From the IMG/VR virus record IMGVR_UViG_2695420456_000020: DNA of 12,626 nucleotides; one strand, written 5' to 3'. The stretch comes from a virus (taxonomy: Duplodnaviria; Heunggongvirae; Uroviricota; Caudoviricetes). Positions 2,626 to 12,626 of this stretch are shown piece after piece. Positions within the stretch are counted from its first letter, which is position 1. Each line of letters begins with the position of its first letter. The notes under the pieces were generated by a model. It saw only the letters and a program-made list of their open reading frames with translations, was not told the origin of the DNA and made no database searches. A program made the translations under genes and the position numbers.

Positions 2626-2833
2626 CAGCAAACCCTCAGGAGTTTCAAATAGCTGTTCTTTTTACGGAAATACTTATGAACTGGCTGGAATAAAGTGCAA
2701 GAAAATGTGACTACCCTCTCATTTTTATCTGACATGATCTGTTGCCACTCGCTGCCAAATTGTGGCGCTAAAGCTGATTAGCACGGTGATATTTGATACT
2801 CTGGCAGACAGCAGAAATAACGGATTTAACCTA

Positions 2834-2896
2834 ATGATGAATGACGGTAAGCAACAATCTACCTTTTTGTTTCACGATTACGCGCAACACCCCTGA
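2834..2896 (+). pseudogene. sbcB: 5' fragment of exonuclease I gene sbcB (first 16 codons MMNDGKQQSTFLFHDY), then a foreign junction and stop after 4 more codons
   Basis: ATGATGAATGACGGTAAGCAACAATCTACCTTTTTGTTTCACGATTAC encodes the ExoI N-terminus as I recall it (MMNDGKQQSTFLFHDYETFG...). From about 2883 the frame reads AQHP then TGA (2894-2896) and unrelated prophage sequence follows. Confidence 0.8.
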
Positions 2897-3251
2897 GAAC
2901 CGCCATGAACAAGGGTTTCATGATTTGTGATTTTAGTTTGGTACGCAATTTGGTACACAACACAATTTTCACTTCAGCGGGTAGTCATCAAACTCACCAT
3001 AACGAGCATCGTTAATGATGTATGTGATCACCACAAATATCACATCTGGACTAGTTCCGTCTTCATGCGCAGGTATCTGTTCACGCCTCCCTTTCTGCAA
3101 ATCCTAAAGATGAGATTTTGGGGTTTTGGGATATCTTTTTATCCTCAGTTCTCTATCAATTCTACAAAGCAGTAATGAACCATCACTATGTGATAGTGAG
3201 GCATCCGCTACATTAAGCGCAGAGAAATGATGCAGTGGTGGGCAGACTGGC

Positions 3252-3279
3252 TTGATGAAAAGGTGGAGTGATCCACCTT
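3252..3279 (-). terminator. Rho-independent terminator downstream of the tailspike gene
   Basis: Inverted repeat aaggtgga (3260-3267) / tccacctt (3272-3279) with loop gtga; on the minus strand the stem is followed by a T-rich tract (ttttcatc). Confidence 0.55.
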
Positions 3280-3422
3280 AACCACTATCGAAGAGCACAA
3301 AGCCTTGCAATCCAGTGCAAAGCTTTGTGTGTCTCAGTTTTGTCTCATCAACCACCGCAAGTCATCGATCGATTGACACTTGGATGATAGACTTCATGCT
3401 TTTTATGGCTAATTTCTGAATT

Positions 3423-5654
3423 TTAAATGGAAATCCTTGCGCTTATATACGCGCTATTTCTTATTTCAGGCTGCTTATTGGATGGATTTAAATTCATAGA
3501 TACACCATTTGTTCCAGTAATTATATTAAGTGTTCCTGATGACAAATCTATTGATGTAGCGGTGATTCCCACAGACTCAGTTGGAGATATATATGCTACA
3601 TTCAATTGTTCAGAACCTGTTATTTTTGAGCGTTCATTAGATATAAAAAAATCCACCTTAGCCCCACTTGTTTCACTTCCATTTTTCTTCAAATTGAACG
3701 TTGACTTGTAAATATTTCCTCTGTATACCTGCCTTCTATATTGACCATTTATTGACACTGGTTGATTGAAATTTGTCATATCAGAAATTGGGTACGTTTC
3801 ATACATATGCGCCCCTTGCGTGCCTATAAATGTTTGGTTAAATCTACCATGAGAGCCTGATACAACTATCATGTCATATCCTTCAATCCACCCTTCTTTG
3901 TGATTTATTGCATATCTAGGAATATCTCCAAAGAAAGCATTTCCATTAATATGGATTGATGACGCCTTATCAATGCTGGAAGGTTCAGGGGTGATTAGTA
4001 TCAACGAAATAACTGAAGATGATACGTCAGGTGTTGCACCACATGTTCTAGAGATATTGTTATCACTTACCTTAGCACTACCATTTTTCCAAACTGATAT
4101 CACCGAACACCCTGAAGAAAATTCATTATCAGAATATATCTCAACTATATTATCACTACATACAACAGATCGCCAACCAGCAACAACAACACCTTGAACA
4201 AATGTTCCAGATGAAGGCGATGTTAGAAAGAATTTATTTCCTATTATTGTTACATCATCATGAGGAAACTTCGTTCCAGTATAATTACCATTAGTCCCAA
4301 ACCATGCACCAATCCTAGCATAACCTCTTATAATATTATTACTAAAAGAAATACCAATAAGTTTTTCGTTATTCCCAAGACAATAAAGATTAACACCTCT
4401 TGAATTTATATTATTTGTTAGTATTTGATTGTTATTTATGCTCAAATTGATAATGGTAGCTGTTGTTGAGTTACAACCAATAACTGATGAGTCTTGAAAA
4501 TATGCCCCATCAAGTATGTTATCAGAAATAATAATATTTCTATATACTCCCCCAGCATGTCCTATTTCAATTTGCAAATTTGAGCTTTTGTTTTGAAGTT
4601 TATTTCCGCTAATAATTATATTTGTGCTAGGTGTGCCATCAACTTTAATTCCAAGTATTGCGTTTGGTTGAGCGGAATCAATCTGTATATCACAATTCCA
4701 CGTAATATGGTCCACCTCCATATCACACGACCCGTGACAGTCTTTGACTGTTACATCGGTTGATCCTGCAATATCAACAAAATGTTGATCATGTCTCCCT
4801 TGCTCCACTCTCTCTATAGTTACATTTTTGCTATGACCTAAACCGATTAAATCACCATAATCCCTTGTTGGGGTTGCGCTACCGTCAGTGATTGTAAAAT
4901 CTCTAAAAACAATATTGCCGGCAGCTCCATAGCCAGTTCTAGTATCATAATATTTATTTGTTATCAAGACACCATCCATCCCCCTCTCAGTGGGTAGTCT
5001 CTGAATGATGGTAGATCCAGCACCAGCCCCACAGAAAGTTACGTTAGCGGGAACTCTAATGCATGAATAATTATGACCTGATTTTTCAATGCTGACGTAA
5101 TATTTACCTGGAGGAAGATAAATAATCCCACCACCTAGAGACTCAAGATAGTCCAATGCAGAGTTAATTGCTATTGTTGAATCATTTGACTTTCCAGATT
5201 CACCAAACATTTGTGGTGTAACTACAATAAAAGAATCAATCAACTGCTGAATTGTTAGTCCAGACGAAGTACCAACATGCCCCGCACCATAATTTGACTC
5301 TATTATTGTTCTAAACTGATCAGGGTCATACTTCAGCACATTAGGAAAATAGAACTGCTGCGCACCGTATGCATCATAAACAGCCATTGAATGGCCTTGC
5401 ACAGTTACGAACTTGGCAATCTGTCCGTTATATACAGGATACCCGCCAGAGTTAATGATGATTGGCTGTGCAACAGGAACGTGAGAGCCGTCTTCGTTCT
5501 CCACATAAACCTGAATCTGGTTTTCAGGGTTTACCGGGTCAGTGTCAATTTTACCGATATAAATTTTGCCATTAGCTACGGCTTTAAAAGAACGCGCCAT
5601 AGTGAAGAGTTGCGAAGGCATCCCAATTACAACATTTGGAGTTATATCAGGCAT
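3423..5654 (-). CDS. Tailspike protein (743 aa): P22-gp9-like head-binding N-domain fused to a pectate-lyase-like right-handed beta-helix receptor-binding domain
   Basis: Start ATG at 5652-5654 with AGGA 8 nt upstream. N-terminus [43 protein letters not shown]...[10 protein letters not shown] aligns with the P22 tailspike head-binding domain ([43 protein letters not shown]...). After about residue 113 the sequence has a pectate-lyase-3-type start ([30 protein letters not shown]) and repeated N/D-x-I beta-helix rungs. The track ORF begins at an upstream TTG (5807), which I treat as non-coding. Confidence 0.9.
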
Positions 5655-6110: not shown

Positions 6111-7046
6111 TCAGTAGTTATGTACTGAAGGAGGTAATTCTTTATTCTTAAGTCTCATCCATGCGGAAAGATTCGTTGGTCCGTCTGGCTCATTGATATC
6201 AACATCTCGTGTGTGATTGATTAAAACGTCTCTCGCCATATCGATAATACGGGAGAACTCATAACCGCAGTCATGACATCTTCCTGAATAGTTCGATTGA
6301 ATTTGTTTCAGCGCCGGATACAGTTCGCGGAATAATGCCTGTGAGCGGTTGGCATAATCCCATAACCATACAAGGCTGTTTGCTTCTTTTGCAGAAAGCT
6401 CGTTTGCTTTCTTCTCTTGTTTGCCGATGAACTCACCTTCAAGTGGAACTCGAGCTGCAAGTGACAGTGCTTCGGTAAACTGCTCCTCACTGATTTCTTT
6501 GTACGAACATCCAAAATGGGATTTAAGTGACGACCACATGGTGATCATCGCCTTAGCCTGTTTTTCTTTTGGCAGATACTGACCGCGACTCATGACGAGT
6601 TGTTTAATGGCTTCCTGCTGTTCAGTGGTGATTTTACCCGGCAACGCTTTTTTAGCTTTGCGTGGGTTAACTACATGGCCTTTAGTCCAGTAGTCATGCA
6701 GCACGCTAAAGCATTCCTCCTGGTACTGAATCAGTTTATCGCGGATGTCAGCTCGAACTTTCTCAGGGTTGATGCTGAACAGCCATCCATTTAACTTCTT
6801 CAAAGGAAGGCAGAGTAGCTTACGAAGCTTCCCATCAGCGGCAACCATATTCATATGAATACAGTTGAACTTATCTAGTTGTTTCATAAGTTTTTGTTGC
6901 TGAGTACCCCAACTCATTCCAAGGTTTTCAACGATTGGCTTCATCGCAACGTATGCAACTCCGGCAGCCATGGCGGTGATAATTTGCTGACCGTTGAATG
7001 GTACGTAAGAGGTGTTCACTGCTTCTAAAATTGCTATACTATTCAT
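6111..7046 (-). CDS. ant: Antirepressor Ant (311 aa), P22 Ant-like
   Basis: ATG at 7044-7046 with GGAG 10 nt upstream. Translation [43 protein letters not shown]... matches P22 antirepressor as recalled, and the gene sits immediately downstream of arc. The track ORF extends upstream to 7112, which I treat as non-coding. Confidence 0.88.
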
Positions 7047-7115
7047 GTTGGTTTTTCTCCACGGATTTACTGACAACCGAAGCCCTGACTGTTCCCGCAG
7101 TTGGGGCTTCAACTT
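7047..7115 (+). ncRNA. sar: Candidate sar-like antisense RNA (antisense to the ant ribosome-binding site and arc-ant spacer); ends approximate
   Basis: P22 makes a ~69-nt antisense RNA from a promoter inside the 5' end of ant, reading toward arc. Here a plus-strand -10-like TATACT (7035-7040) lies just inside ant, and a stem gaagccc (7079-7085) / gggcttc (7104-7110) lies in the arc-ant spacer. Inferred from position only; the 3' T-tract is weak. Confidence 0.35.
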
Positions 7116-7276
7116 TACGCGCCAATGCGCCCTTCCTTCTTAAAGCTTTCCATTACTCTCTGATAAATCTCAGAGTTAACAGACCGACCATTCTCTTCCG
7201 CCACCTTGCGTACCAAATCCAATACTTCTTTAGGCCACCGCAAATTGAACTGCGGCATCTTGCTCATTCCTTTCAT
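7115..7276 (-). CDS. arc: Arc repressor (53 aa, ribbon-helix-helix)
   Basis: Translation [53 protein letters not shown] is near-identical to P22 Arc as recalled. ATG at 7274-7276 with GAGGTG 3 nt upstream; stop at 7115-7117. Confidence 0.95.
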
Positions 7277-7290
7277 ATTCACCTCACAAT

Positions 7291-7311
7291 ATAGGTCCAC
7301 CGTGGACCTAT
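7291..7311. promoter_or_regulatory. Mnt operator (Omnt): perfect palindrome ataggtccaccgtggacctat
   Basis: Perfect 10-bp arms around a central C, identical to the P22 mnt operator core (AGGTCCACGGTGGACCT on the other strand), lying between the Pant -10 and the arc start. Confidence 0.9.
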
Positions 7312-7339
7312 TGAGAATATAGTAGAGTGCTTCTATCAT
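7311..7339 (+). promoter_or_regulatory. Candidate Pmnt promoter (-35 TTGAGA 7311-7316, 17-bp spacer, -10 TATCAT 7334-7339), overlapping and divergent from Pant
   Basis: Hexamers with correct spacing read directly from the plus strand, 28 bp upstream of the mnt ATG; P22 has overlapping divergent Pant/Pmnt promoters. Confidence 0.6.
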
Positions 7340-7344
7340 GTCAA
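7316..7344 (-). promoter_or_regulatory. Pant promoter (-35 TTGACA, 17-bp spacer, -10 TATATT on the minus strand) with the Arc operator (7319-7339) embedded in the spacer
   Basis: Minus strand reads TTGACA (rc of 7339-7344), 17 bp, TATATT (rc of 7316-7321). The sequence between them, ATGATAGAAGCACTCTACTAT (rc of 7319-7339), equals the P22 arc operator as recalled. Confidence 0.85.
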
Positions 7345-7366
7345 TACACTAACTTGGAGTGATGGC

Positions 7367-7621
7367 ATGGCTAGAGATGATCCGCACTTTAACTTCCGTA
7401 TGCCTATGGAAGTAAGGGAGAAATTAAAATTCAGGGCGGAGGCGAATGGGAGATCAATGAACTCCGAGTTGTTACAAATCGTCCAAGATGCTCTATCAAA
7501 ACCATCGCCTGTGACTGGCTATCGCGACGAAGCTGAACGCTTGGCTGATCAGCAGGCAGAGCAGTTCAAGACTGTTGTGTTTGAGACACTTAAAAAGATT
7601 TATGGCAAGGATGATAAATAA
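7367..7621 (+). CDS. mnt: Mnt repressor (84 aa, ribbon-helix-helix; maintenance of ant repression)
   Basis: Translation MARDDPHFNFRMPMEVREKLKFRAEANGRSMNSELLQIVQDALSKPSPVTGYR... matches P22 Mnt as recalled. ATG at 7367 with GGAG 7 nt upstream; stop TAA at 7619-7621. Confidence 0.95.
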   Translation: MARDDPHFNFRMPMEVREKLKFRAEANGRSMNSELLQIVQDALSKPSPVTGYRDEAERLADQQAEQFKTVVFETLKKIYGKDDK

Positions 7622-8157
7622 TGCTGCACACAATTCATTTCTTATGCCCCGTTAACACCGCCACTGTTGGGCAACTTCAGAACCACTGTCTCACCGCATT
7701 ATCTCAAGGCGCAACTGAATTAAATATCCATATATCAAGTCAGGGAGGGGAAACTGCCGCTGGTTTTACTGCGTATAACTTTCTTAAGTCACTCCCTGTT
7801 ACCGTTAGAACTCACAACATAAGCAATGTTGAATCCATAGCTAATATCGTTTTCCTGGCTGGCTCAGAACGTTTCGCAAACCCATTATCAAGATTCCTGT
7901 TACATCCTCTATTATGGGGCTTTGCCACCCCAGCCGCCGACCATGCCAGATTGAGAGAGTACGGGAAATGCCTCGATAACGATCTTGATCGCTTCGTTGA
8001 GACGTTCAATATCGACATCGGAACCCATATTAGGTGGGCATCCCTGATAGCAGACTCGACCATTTTGGATGCTAACAAGGCTCTTGAGCATGGCATAATT
8101 AATTCCATAAAAACTGCAAGGCTGGTATCCAATCAGGCAAACTGGTGGGTTGTTTGA
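7621..8157 (+). CDS. Compact ClpP-fold (S14-like) serine peptidase, 178 aa, translationally coupled to mnt
   Basis: ATG at 7621-7623 overlaps the mnt stop (TAATG). The translation aligns by eye with ClpP: ISSQGGETAAG vs INSPGGSVTAG, Ser72 in NVESIAN vs GQAASMG, His95 in RFLLHPL vs RVMIHQP, Asp150 in ADSTILDANKALEHGIINSI. It lacks the ClpP N-terminal region. Confidence 0.75.
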   Translation: MLHTIHFLCPVNTATVGQLQNHCLTALSQGATELNIHISSQGGETAAGFTAYNFLKSLPVTVRTHNISNVESIANIVFLAGSERFANPLSRFLLHPLLWGFATPAADHARLREYGKCLDNDLDRFVETFNIDIGTHIRWASLIADSTILDANKALEHGIINSIKTARLVSNQANWWVV

Positions 8158-9327: not shown

Positions 9328-11496
9328 TTACTCCTGTGTCATTCCGCTTAGCGATGCCACAATCCCAGCCCTCGACAAACGCTGGAACTCTTCGTTTCCT
9401 AGTGCATCGCGAATTGCTTTTACGGCGGCCTTATTTGCCATAAATCTGCGTTCCGCCGCCGCTAATGCGCCATCACTTGCCCCAACCTTAACTGCCTTTG
9501 TTGCCTCTTGAACAGCCTTTTCAATAGCGTAACGACCACTTCTGGTTGCGGATAATTTCGCTATCGATCCTTTTGCTATCGCATCAATTGCTCCACCAGC
9601 AGCGCCACCCACTATTGCTCCAATAACACCTCCTCCAGAGAACCCTGCGATAGCGCCAGCGGTTGGAAAAGCGCCAGACAATACGCTCTCTAAAACTGGA
9701 TGAAGGCCATTCTCAAGAGTGCTAATGGCTGGCATAGAGCGCCCTGTTTGTTCAACATATCGAAGTGGCTTTGTTGCAGCTCTTGCAAGTTCTCCGTATG
9801 AACTTGTAATCCTGCCAAGTTCTGGAGAATATCGACTAATTGCCTTCACGTTTTGTGGGGTAAGAATAGTCGCGATATGCTTAATTCCAGCTCCTTCAGA
9901 CTTACCTCCGCGTACCCCTTGCGATACCGCATCTTGTAATATTGATGCAATTGCTGGCGCGCGTTCCGATTCAGGTAGGGCGCTTATTATTTTATGGAAC
10001 TGACCTGTTCCACTTTTTGCTGAACCCTGTAACGCCTTAGATCCATTAGTTACCAACTGATCAGTTGCAAGGTCTCTACCAAACGCTGCTTCAGCCTGTT
10101 CTTGTGCTGTAAATCTTGCCTTTGACAGATCATTAGCTTTTTGCCAGTCATCAAGAAAACCGCCATTTTGAGCCATTATGCGCATATCTTCCGTTGCTGC
10201 ATCACGAAGCTCAGCCATGCGCCTTGCCGTATTTGCCTCACCAGACCTTATATACTTCTGCTCTGCGTCAGCAAGTTTACTTCGCCATGCCTTCATGGCA
10301 TCAAACGTGATTCCTTTTTTACCAGTTTTAGCATAAGCAGATGCGAATTGTTTCATCTCAGGAGTTAGCGGCATGCCAGCCAAAATATCACCCTGAATTG
10401 TAGCGTTCAGGTTTGACATTCTGGCCTTTGCGTCAGGCATCGTGGAGCGGACGCTATCCCATGCGGCCTTTTCTGAATTTTTCATTTTATCAATACTTGC
10501 CAAAACCCTTTGTTTTATGGCTGCACTTTTTTCTGATGCAGTTCCTGCTTCAGCCCCAAACTCATCCAATGCTGAGTTAAATTTCGACTCTATTTCACTG
10601 AATGCTTTGGTGTGTGCATCCTGTGTAATTCCGGGCTTTGACGCCAGAATCCCCTCCGCCTGAGCAAGACCACGACTACCTGATCTCATGCCAGGAGTTA
10701 ATGCGTTGATATCTATTCCAGCAGTATCTGCTGCTTTTGCTATTTCGTCTGACACATTAGCTGACTGTCTGGCAATAATCTCTCTTCCTGTACCAGACTT
10801 TGCCATTTTCGAAACATCAGCAGCGGAATTTATTGCCCCGCCACCAAGAACTTGAGGTGATTTAGAGGTTAAGATCCTTCCAGCCCCAGAAAGTATCCCC
10901 TGAGCACCAATATTGATACCACCATTAATGGCAGCATTTTGTGCAAAATCGCCCTCCTGATTTGCAGCATCAGCAAGAGAACCTGCAATCATGTTTCCTG
11001 CGGAACCGATGTCTCCTGCGAGCTTTGCTGTCGCTCCAGCAGCTTTTGCCGCTGTGCCAATTGGCAGGAGATACCCCCCAAATGTTTCACCGGCTTGCGC
11101 CCAAGGGTCTGTCGGTCGATCGACAGGGCGATAAACATCATCCAAAACCTTGGGGCCACCAAGCCCCTGGCTGATTGCATTAATCAGACTTGCGCCACCC
11201 TGCAATACGTCAAATGGTATATTTACCAGACCACGACCAGCCTGTTCTGCAATTTGCCCTGCACTTTGACCACCTGTGAGCCAATCACCAGCTTGTTGCA
11301 TCAATGATGGTTCTTCTTTCTGCTGCTGAGGCGGAGGGTATGCTGCATAAAACTGATCTCTTGCTTCAGCCCATTTGTCACCAGCCTTAGGGGCAACAAC
11401 CTCATCAAAATATTGCGCTTGAGCCTGTGCTTTCTGTTCTTCAGTTAACGCCTGATACTGTGGAGAGGCGATAACATCTTTCCATGCTTTAGCCAT
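9328..11496 (-). CDS. Putative DNA-ejection (internal virion) protein, 722 aa, Ala/Gly/Gln-rich; P22 gp16-position
   Basis: Long ORF whose start overlaps the upstream stop (TAATG at 11494-11498). Composition is low-complexity A/G/Q/E/K-rich with a glycine-zipper segment ([31 protein letters not shown]). Function inferred from position relative to immI/tailspike; no direct homology recalled. Confidence 0.65.
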
Positions 11497-12479
11497 TAAT
11501 CACCCCATAAAGACGAGAAACCGGACTCATTGCTGTCGCTTCCTGATTTTCGCTCACTAACATATGTGTCATAACCTGATGAACTATATCCCATTGATTC
11601 AGCCTCCCTTGCTGCAACCTTTTGAAATACATAATATTGCGATCGGATTTCAGATAACTGTTTTCTGACGACCTCTTCAGGCTGTGTTATATCGAGTTTC
11701 GCGATCAGGTTTTCCAGTTTTTGTCCTTCAGCATTGGAGAGACTACCCATACCTCGCATAGTCTGCACGTTCTGGACAAACGCACCAGACTTTAATTCTT
11801 CTATCGCATTACGGTTTGCAATCCCTTCAGCACTTGTGAAGCCATCTATATTTCTTCCTTCGAAGCGACCGATACCTTCAAGCTCCTTCTTACCAAGCAA
11901 AGAATCAATTTTCTCTATCCCTCGCTCACCAGTAATCAACGCATTGTTGTAATTATTGTTGCCATCAAGCCATCTCTTAGCCTGAGACATTCTGGCTGAC
12001 GTTGCAGCTTTACCGGTTAGAGGATCAATTCCTGTCGCTGCTATCTGTGAGTTAAGAGACAAAACATCCATATCCTGAAGTTGTCCTGCTCTTTCAATGG
12101 CCGCCTGTGACTGCTTAAACACATACTTGTCGTGATTCAGTCTTGCCATTTGAGCCTTATAGGAAAGATCCTGCCCCCTAATAGCCCTCGCATTCGTCAT
12201 GTCATTATTGCGAATGGTTTCGTTAATTCTTTGCTGCTCCTGCTGGCGACCAACCATCTTATCCTGAACAGCAAACGCCTTTTCTGGCCCAAGCGCACCG
12301 AGAGACATAGTAGTCAGCATGTGTGATAGCTGCTCTGGATTCTGGATACCTGTCTGAATCATCCAGTCAGCATTCGCACCCACACGATTTAACCTGTCCT
12401 TGTTGTCAGTAATGAATTTACTGTAGGCTTCCGGCCCCTGAGAAAGAGCGACGTTAGCCCTCATGGCTAAATCGCCCAT
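11496..12479 (-). CDS. Putative DNA-ejection protein, 327 aa; P22 gp20-position
   Basis: ORF tightly coupled to the downstream 722-aa gene; Q/N/R-rich, coiled-coil-like. ATG at 12477-12479 has no clear SD (alternative ATG at 12462-12464). An in-frame stop at 12552-12554 excludes a longer N-terminus. Confidence 0.6.
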
Positions 12480-12563
12480 ATCGTTGCGTTGCTGATCATT
12501 AAGACCGGAAAACGCCTGTTGTGAACCGCCCCGGGTTTCCTGGAGAGTGTTTTATCTGTGAAC

Positions 12564-12626
12564 TCAGGCTGCCAGATCATCGTTTCCGATGGAAGCATAA
12601 TAAGCTTTTTCTGCTTCTGCCGGAGG
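12564..12626 (-). CDS. 3' end (20 codons, ...PPAEAEKAYYASIGNDDLAA) of an upstream virion/ejection gene running off the window
   Basis: Minus-strand frame open from the window edge to TGA at 12564-12566, with E. coli-like codon usage. A second frame is also open to 12467, so frame assignment is uncertain. Confidence 0.3.
   Translation of the reverse strand, partial: PPAEAEKAYYASIGNDDLAA

Follow-up and report, generated by a model that had tools for sequence, protein, structure and literature searches.

Results

The Host Side of the Junction

The stretch of DNA analyzed here (12,626 nucleotides, hereafter the window) corresponds to bases 14–12639 of the 12,641-bp draft contig CYCZ01000085.1 (GCA_001283765.1). 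It holds a junction between Escherichia coli chromosomal DNA and a prophage, the second junction and the integrase gene lying outside it, and its features are listed in table 1. From position 117 to position 2882, the window matches the yeeA'-sbmC-dacD-sbcB' region of K-12 with 99.96% identity (one mismatch in 2,766 nt), and several E. coli with an uninterrupted sbcB match positions 1–2882 at a reported identity of 100.0%.

In an ungapped comparison with sbcB of K-12 MG1655, the 49 nt that begin at the start codon (position 2834) were identical, the codons being ATG ATG AAT GAC GGT AAG CAA CAA TCT ACC TTT TTG TTT CAC GAT TAC. The first mismatch falls at position 2883; over the 200 nt that follow, identity drops to the random level of 16%. 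Past this point, the sbcB frame reads GCG CAA CAC CCC TGA, with the stop codon at 2894–2896. Alignment to uninterrupted sbcB places the breakpoint at 2883, directly after the 13-bp core, with no in-frame continuation beyond it. The original prediction, according to which the first 16 codons of sbcB are retained and the frame diverges at about 2883 and stops four codons later, proved to be exact. Its placement of the prophage inside the 5' end of sbcB also stands, given that the breakpoint follows codon 16 relative to K-12 and that prophage genes extend to the right. The native promoter region and start codon are stranded at the junction, as had been proposed: they belong to the segment that matches K-12, and the body of the gene is absent.

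Table 1. Positions and strands of the features found in the window
Feature	Position	Strand	Description
Native dacD-sbcB intergenic region	2632–2833	+	Candidate native sbcB promoter, cut off from the gene body; within the 99.96% match to K-12
sbcB' remnant ORF	2834–2896	+	20 codons: 16 native (MMNDGKQQSTFLFHDY), then 4 phage-derived (AQHP), TGA
Crossover core, type-2851 att site	2870–2882	+	13 bp, TTTCACGATTACG; codons for Phe13-His14-Asp15-Tyr16 and first base of Glu17
Tailspike-side attP arm, core to gene 9	2883–3422		540 nt; homologous to attP flanks of related phages
Two direct TGGTACRC repeats	2939–2958	+	Putative arm-type integrase-binding sites
UmuD/HumD-like gene remnant	2972–3223	−	5'-truncated, in-frame stop; tblastn with HK140_028
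Tailspike, gene 9 homologue	3423–5654	−	743 aa; last prophage gene, reads towards the junction; Pfam Head_binding (E=4e-65) at the start of the product
ant	6111–7046	−	immI region (6111–7621); PHROG/Pfam
sar RNA	7047–7114	+	Rfam RF00262, 95.6 bits, full-length, between arc and ant
arc	7115–7276	−	immI region
mnt	7367–7621	+	immI region
ClpP-like serine-protease gene	7621–8157	+	178 aa; starts on the mnt stop codon; weak Clp_protease and head-maturation-protease matches only
Ejection-protein gene 16	9328–11496	−	PHROG and Pfam
Ejection-protein gene 20	11496–12524	−	Cut by an insertion sequence; PHROG and Pfam

The Prophage

The best phage matches of the window are the Lederbergvirus genomes vB_EcoP-611R6, CUS-3, HK620, epsilon34 and P22. 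Its gene order, 20-16-(accessory)-mnt-arc-sar-ant-9-att, is that of the right end of phages of the P22/HK620/Sf6 type, with which it also shares the head-binding domain of the tailspike. The receptor-binding part of the tailspike had PHROG 8280 ("colanic acid degradation" tailspikes) as its sole match, and an NCBIfam search with this part returned no match; the exact 743-aa protein is on record on six contigs only. A full-length sar is present between arc and ant, so that the immI control region, which is of the P22 type, seems to be complete.

The gene that adjoins mnt encodes a distant ClpP-like serine protease, in the place where P22 has sieA, and it may be expressed in the lysogen. Two small conserved ORFs lie beside it. 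PADLOC and NCBIfam searches with the ClpP-like gene and both small ORFs recovered no defense family.

At the right extremity, residues 108–449 of HK620 gp20 match positions 11499–12524 at 98%, and the homology ends at about 12524. The remaining segment (12525–12626, about 102 nt) is the terminal part of an IS3-family element, IS1203/IS629, and is 100% identical to many E. coli copies. The set of virion genes is not intact, gene 20 being broken at about 12525, and this interruption by IS1203 suggests that the prophage is probably defective.

At the opposite extremity, positions 1–116 differ from yeeA of K-12 and match the DNA directly next to an IS621 transposase gene, by which yeeA is interrupted in E. 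coli RM11911. IS621 is a member of the IS110 family, and yeeA belongs to the FUSC family. Positions 1–116 probably belong to IS621 as its non-coding end. With IS621-adjoining DNA on the left and IS1203 on the right, the contig is bounded by insertion sequences on both sides.

The Attachment Site and Its Frequency

A five-sequence comparison of attachment sites included attB of K-12, attP of Sf101/HK140, attR of the window/VE-T2 and attL of VE-T2. Only the core TTTCACGATTACG was common to all, and the flanks recombine exactly as predicted from attP x attB. The GenBank record of mEp234 carries the annotation "prophage attachment site (type 2851)". In the publication on Sf101 (PMC4159516), the attP that this phage has in common with the Stx2c phage 2851 is given as the 13-bp core, in the form CGTAATCGTGAAA. 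The claim that sbcB is a known insertion locus for prophages is likewise confirmed by the literature (PMC4159516, PMC8309913). On sequence grounds, positions 2834–2922 are the junction that a P22-like (Lederbergvirus) prophage in the type-2851 attachment site of sbcB has on its tailspike side, distal to the integrase.

A junction identical to that of the window, with its long arm, was found in 440 of the 5,426 complete E. coli genomes, and the int-arm-sbcB junction in 578 of the same 5,426. Moreover, a scan of viral contigs detected the junction of the window in 32 of the 40 IMG/VR contigs that bear the same phage arm. We considered whether the junction could be an assembly chimera, or a rearrangement without site specificity, with no site-specific integration involved, as the source is a short-read draft contig with insertion sequences at both ends. 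The recurrence of the same junction at the same base in 440 complete genomes and 32 IMG/VR contigs, together with its coincidence with the experimentally defined 13-bp core (PMC4159516), leaves such an artifact with a negligible probability. It is a genuine junction, of a common kind that has been described before.

The Tailspike-Side Arm

The arm between the core and gene 9 is 92–96.5% identical, over 460–520 nt, to the attP flanks of E212, EC.P3, mEp234, Sf101, 2851 and many Stx phages; over about 460 nt, identity was 92.4% for 2851, 94.1% for Sf101 and 96.5% for mEp234. Two other lambda-like phages, HK140 and HK544, share the arm over the first ~150 nt only. The phages that carry this arm include P22-like phages (E212, EC.P3, Sf101), lambda-like siphoviruses (mEp234) and many Stx1a, Stx2a and Stx2c phages, and it therefore belongs to an integration module which moves across mosaic phages.

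The motif TGGTACRC occurs three times in the window against 0.47 occurrences expected, two of the matches being located in the arm. In the attP of Sf101 we found five copies in the same orientation, three on the integrase side and two on the tailspike side, against 0.29 expected, a count reached in none of 200 shuffled sequences. These repeats could be arm-type binding sites for the integrase.

The conservation of the arm is explained by a decayed UmuD/HumD-like gene that it contains. In a tblastn search, residues 45–129 of HK140_028 align to the remnant with 55% identity (E=1e-26), and the stop codon falls inside the alignment. An intact UmuD/HumD-like gene is present at the same place in HK140 and in some E. 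coli prophages.

We also asked whether the stranded sbcB promoter might drive a gene in the arm, the candidate being an 82-aa ORF on the plus strand (2927–3175) that is annotated in Sf101 as orf17, and rejected this idea. The ORF has no PHROG or Pfam match and is antisense to the decayed UmuD-like gene, making it unlikely to be a real gene; it is probably spurious.

The Integrase-Side Junction in Related Phages and Lysogens

As the other end of the prophage lies off the contig, the state of sbcB there is inferred from related lysogens. On the integrase side of attP in phages of the 2851 type, a substitute 5' end of sbcB, ATGACAGACACAGATAAACAACCTACCTTCCTC, directly precedes the core. It consists of an ATG followed by 10 diverged codons in frame with the core, together with which it encodes MTDTDKQPTFLFHDY. 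The ATG and the reading frame are kept in all 12 integrase-side arms compared, with one Asp-to-Gly variant and one synonymous variant among them. The expectation that the distal part of sbcB would need a start supplied by the phage is thus borne out, an in-frame ATG being present in 12/12 arms.

Four complete-genome lysogens were sampled (VE-T2, O157:H7 Z1836, 1296KP and Z30). All four carry a 2851-type tyrosine integrase and a second copy of the core at the other junction, and in each sbcB is an intact CDS of 1,425 nt (474 aa). In RefSeq, sbcB of the lysogens is annotated as exodeoxyribonuclease I (ExoI), without a pseudogene flag, at 181 bp from the divergent tyrosine integrase gene. A single exact chimeric ExoI protein was present on 197 contigs of the protein collection.

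Chimeric and native ExoI differ exclusively within residues 1–9. The substitute keeps the residues Thr-Phe-Leu-Phe-His-Asp-Tyr, partly by means of synonymous changes (TTT>TTC, TTG>CTC), and Asp15 and Glu17 are restored exactly in the chimera. These two catalytic residues are conserved metal ligands of ExoI, and the purified active enzyme tolerates N-terminal extensions (PMC3675492). Among native enterobacterial ExoI proteins, the N-terminus is hypervariable before FLFHDY and invariant from there on. The phage-borne N-terminus has the 15-residue format typical of ExoI of the Kosakonia, Klebsiella and Kluyvera type, the closest one seen being MSDDERQPTFLFHDY, and is less similar to the N-terminus of E. 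coli than to native ones from other enterobacterial genera. This points to acquisition of the substitute segment from the sbcB of another host, or to co-evolution with it, and hints that the module itself could have arisen in another host. Two exact-pattern scans of contigs representing one genome per species, which addressed the species spread and the origin of the substitute 5' end, returned no match.

A promoter scan and a weight-matrix scan of the 181-bp phage arm of related lysogens gave nothing above the level of shuffled sequences. The same two scans of the native sbcB upstream region also found nothing that scored above shuffled sequence; since they miss even the native sbcB promoter, the promoter scans say nothing either way.

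Discussion

In this work, we describe one end of a P22-like prophage integrated in sbcB and propose, with considerable confidence, that its insertion would have been site-specific at TTTCACGATTACG, exchanging the 5' end of the gene and leaving the ORF of ExoI rebuilt at the other junction. The phage would have entered sbcB by tyrosine-integrase recombination at the 13-bp core, with the crossover in the codons for Phe13-His14-Asp15-Tyr16. The attP carries a diverged 5' end of sbcB on its integrase side, so that integration swaps the 5' end of the gene. The native promoter and codons 1–16 would then be left at the tailspike-side junction as a dead-end ORF of 20 codons, while at the other junction, at a distance of 181 bp from the divergent int gene, the body of sbcB would be fused in frame to a start codon of the phage. 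This second junction, next to int, is expected to contain AAACAACCTACCTTCCTCTTTCACGATTACGAAACCTTTGG, and the predicted product is a 474-aa ExoI that is native except for residues 1–9. We assume that the strain of the window has the same second junction, and that the 181-bp phage arm is the source of a working promoter. The Exo I motif FLFHDYETFG is invariant and the crossover lies within its codons, which makes this site a stable target for integration.

A different outcome would be a true disruption of the gene, in which sbcB of this strain has no usable promoter or start, ExoI is lost, and an sbcB-like phenotype in recombination or defense is to be expected. Of sbcB, the window itself has just the orphaned 5' end, and the scans predicted no consensus promoter for the phage arm in related lysogens. 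The prophage is also ridden with insertion sequences, as seen from IS1203 in gene 20, so secondary deletions or a rearrangement of the int-sbcB end could have taken place, and some papers use the word "disruption" loosely for the sbcB site (PMC8309913). Nevertheless, every attP or attL arm that we examined provides a start codon in frame and a replacement N-terminus, whose protein sequence has been kept by synonymous changes; sbcB is intact in the four sampled lysogens, and the int-sbcB junction occurs in about 10% of the complete E. coli genomes. Taken together, these data make a true disruption very improbable. The suggestion in the original prediction that ExoI is lost or altered finds no support in the substitute 5' end of the 12 arms or in the intact sbcB of the four lysogens. 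Judging from these sequences, it is almost certain that sbcB has been rebuilt and not lost, since phages of the 2851 type carry a replacement start.

If the ORF is rebuilt, its expression may still change, because the int-sbcB intergenic arm would take the place of the native promoter and integration would in this way rewire ExoI. The divergent int and sbcB genes are 181 bp apart, with three TGGTACRC repeats in between, to which Int may bind, and an xis-like gene and early-left genes are located upstream of sbcB on the same strand. The early-left operon points towards sbcB, making read-through upon induction conceivable. Additionally, the level of ExoI matters for defense based on single-stranded DNA, for example DRT10 (bioRxiv 10.64898/2026.04.29.721553). 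On the other hand, the promoter scans were uninformative and the arrangement may be neutral, so that we regard altered expression as possible but somewhat doubtful. A stronger version, that integration is non-neutral and places ExoI under prophage-linked control, either by binding of Int in the 181-bp arm or by early-left read-through, with a shift in the levels of single-strand exonuclease, seems to us unlikely. In the accessible literature, we found nothing on a change in ExoI levels caused by exchange of the promoter and N-terminus.

The rebuilding of sbcB that we favor has parallels in integrations that replace the end of a gene, such as those of phage 21 and e14 at icd and of many phages and islands at the 3' ends of tRNA genes, in which attP holds a diverged end of the target gene. 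As in those cases, the target ORF would be rebuilt after integration, here by ATGACAGACACAGATAAACAACCTACCTTCCTC and the core, which are present in 12/12 integrase-side arms. At icd and tRNA genes, however, it is the 3' end that is replaced, whereas at sbcB it is the 5' end, and consequently the phage must also supply a start codon, a ribosome-binding site and a promoter.

Another group of intragenic elements undergoes active lysogeny, in which the gene is inactive until excision; it includes phi10403S in comK of Listeria, SpyCIM1 in mutL and skin in sigK. The sbcB prophages resemble these elements in that integration is intragenic and takes place near the start of, or within, a gene of DNA metabolism or regulation. 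The reconstitution of the ORF in related lysogens indicates, nevertheless, that integration in sbcB is not an active lysogeny of this gene-inactivating kind.

The type-2851 sbcB module is found in 2851, Sf101, mEp234, HK140, HK544 and many Stx1a, Stx2a and Stx2c phages, with which the window shares the core, the target and the tailspike-side arm. The Stx2c phage 2851 was reportedly described by Strauch et al. in 2008. Sf101 was described by Jakhetia et al. (2014; PMC4159516). The module has spread mosaically among podoviral P22-like phages, siphoviral lambda-like phages and Stx phages. In the junction, we found no difference between the window and the other phages of this type, but the body of the prophage is a different mosaic, with its 743-aa tailspike, the ClpP-like gene beside mnt and IS1203. 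The choice of the integration site also sets it apart from its relatives: P22 integrates at thrW and Sf6 at argW (for the Shigella serotype-converting phages, see PMC4159516), whereas the prophage of the window uses the sbcB module.

The sbcB site, which is occupied in about one-tenth of the complete E. coli genomes, serves as a standard locus for typing prophages, those of Stx2c included. In annotating such genomes, it would be a mistake to count a truncated sbcB 5' end next to a prophage as loss of exonuclease I, since the other junction restores the gene with a start that the phage brings in. The question of how ExoI is expressed in these lysogens has become more relevant now that the enzyme has been implicated in the control of a reverse-transcriptase-based defense system, DRT10 (bioRxiv 10.64898/2026.04.29.721553). 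If prophage-linked control of ExoI did exist, a shift in its levels in some 10% of E. coli would affect recombination as well as the defense systems that are sensitive to ExoI, such as retrons and DRT10.
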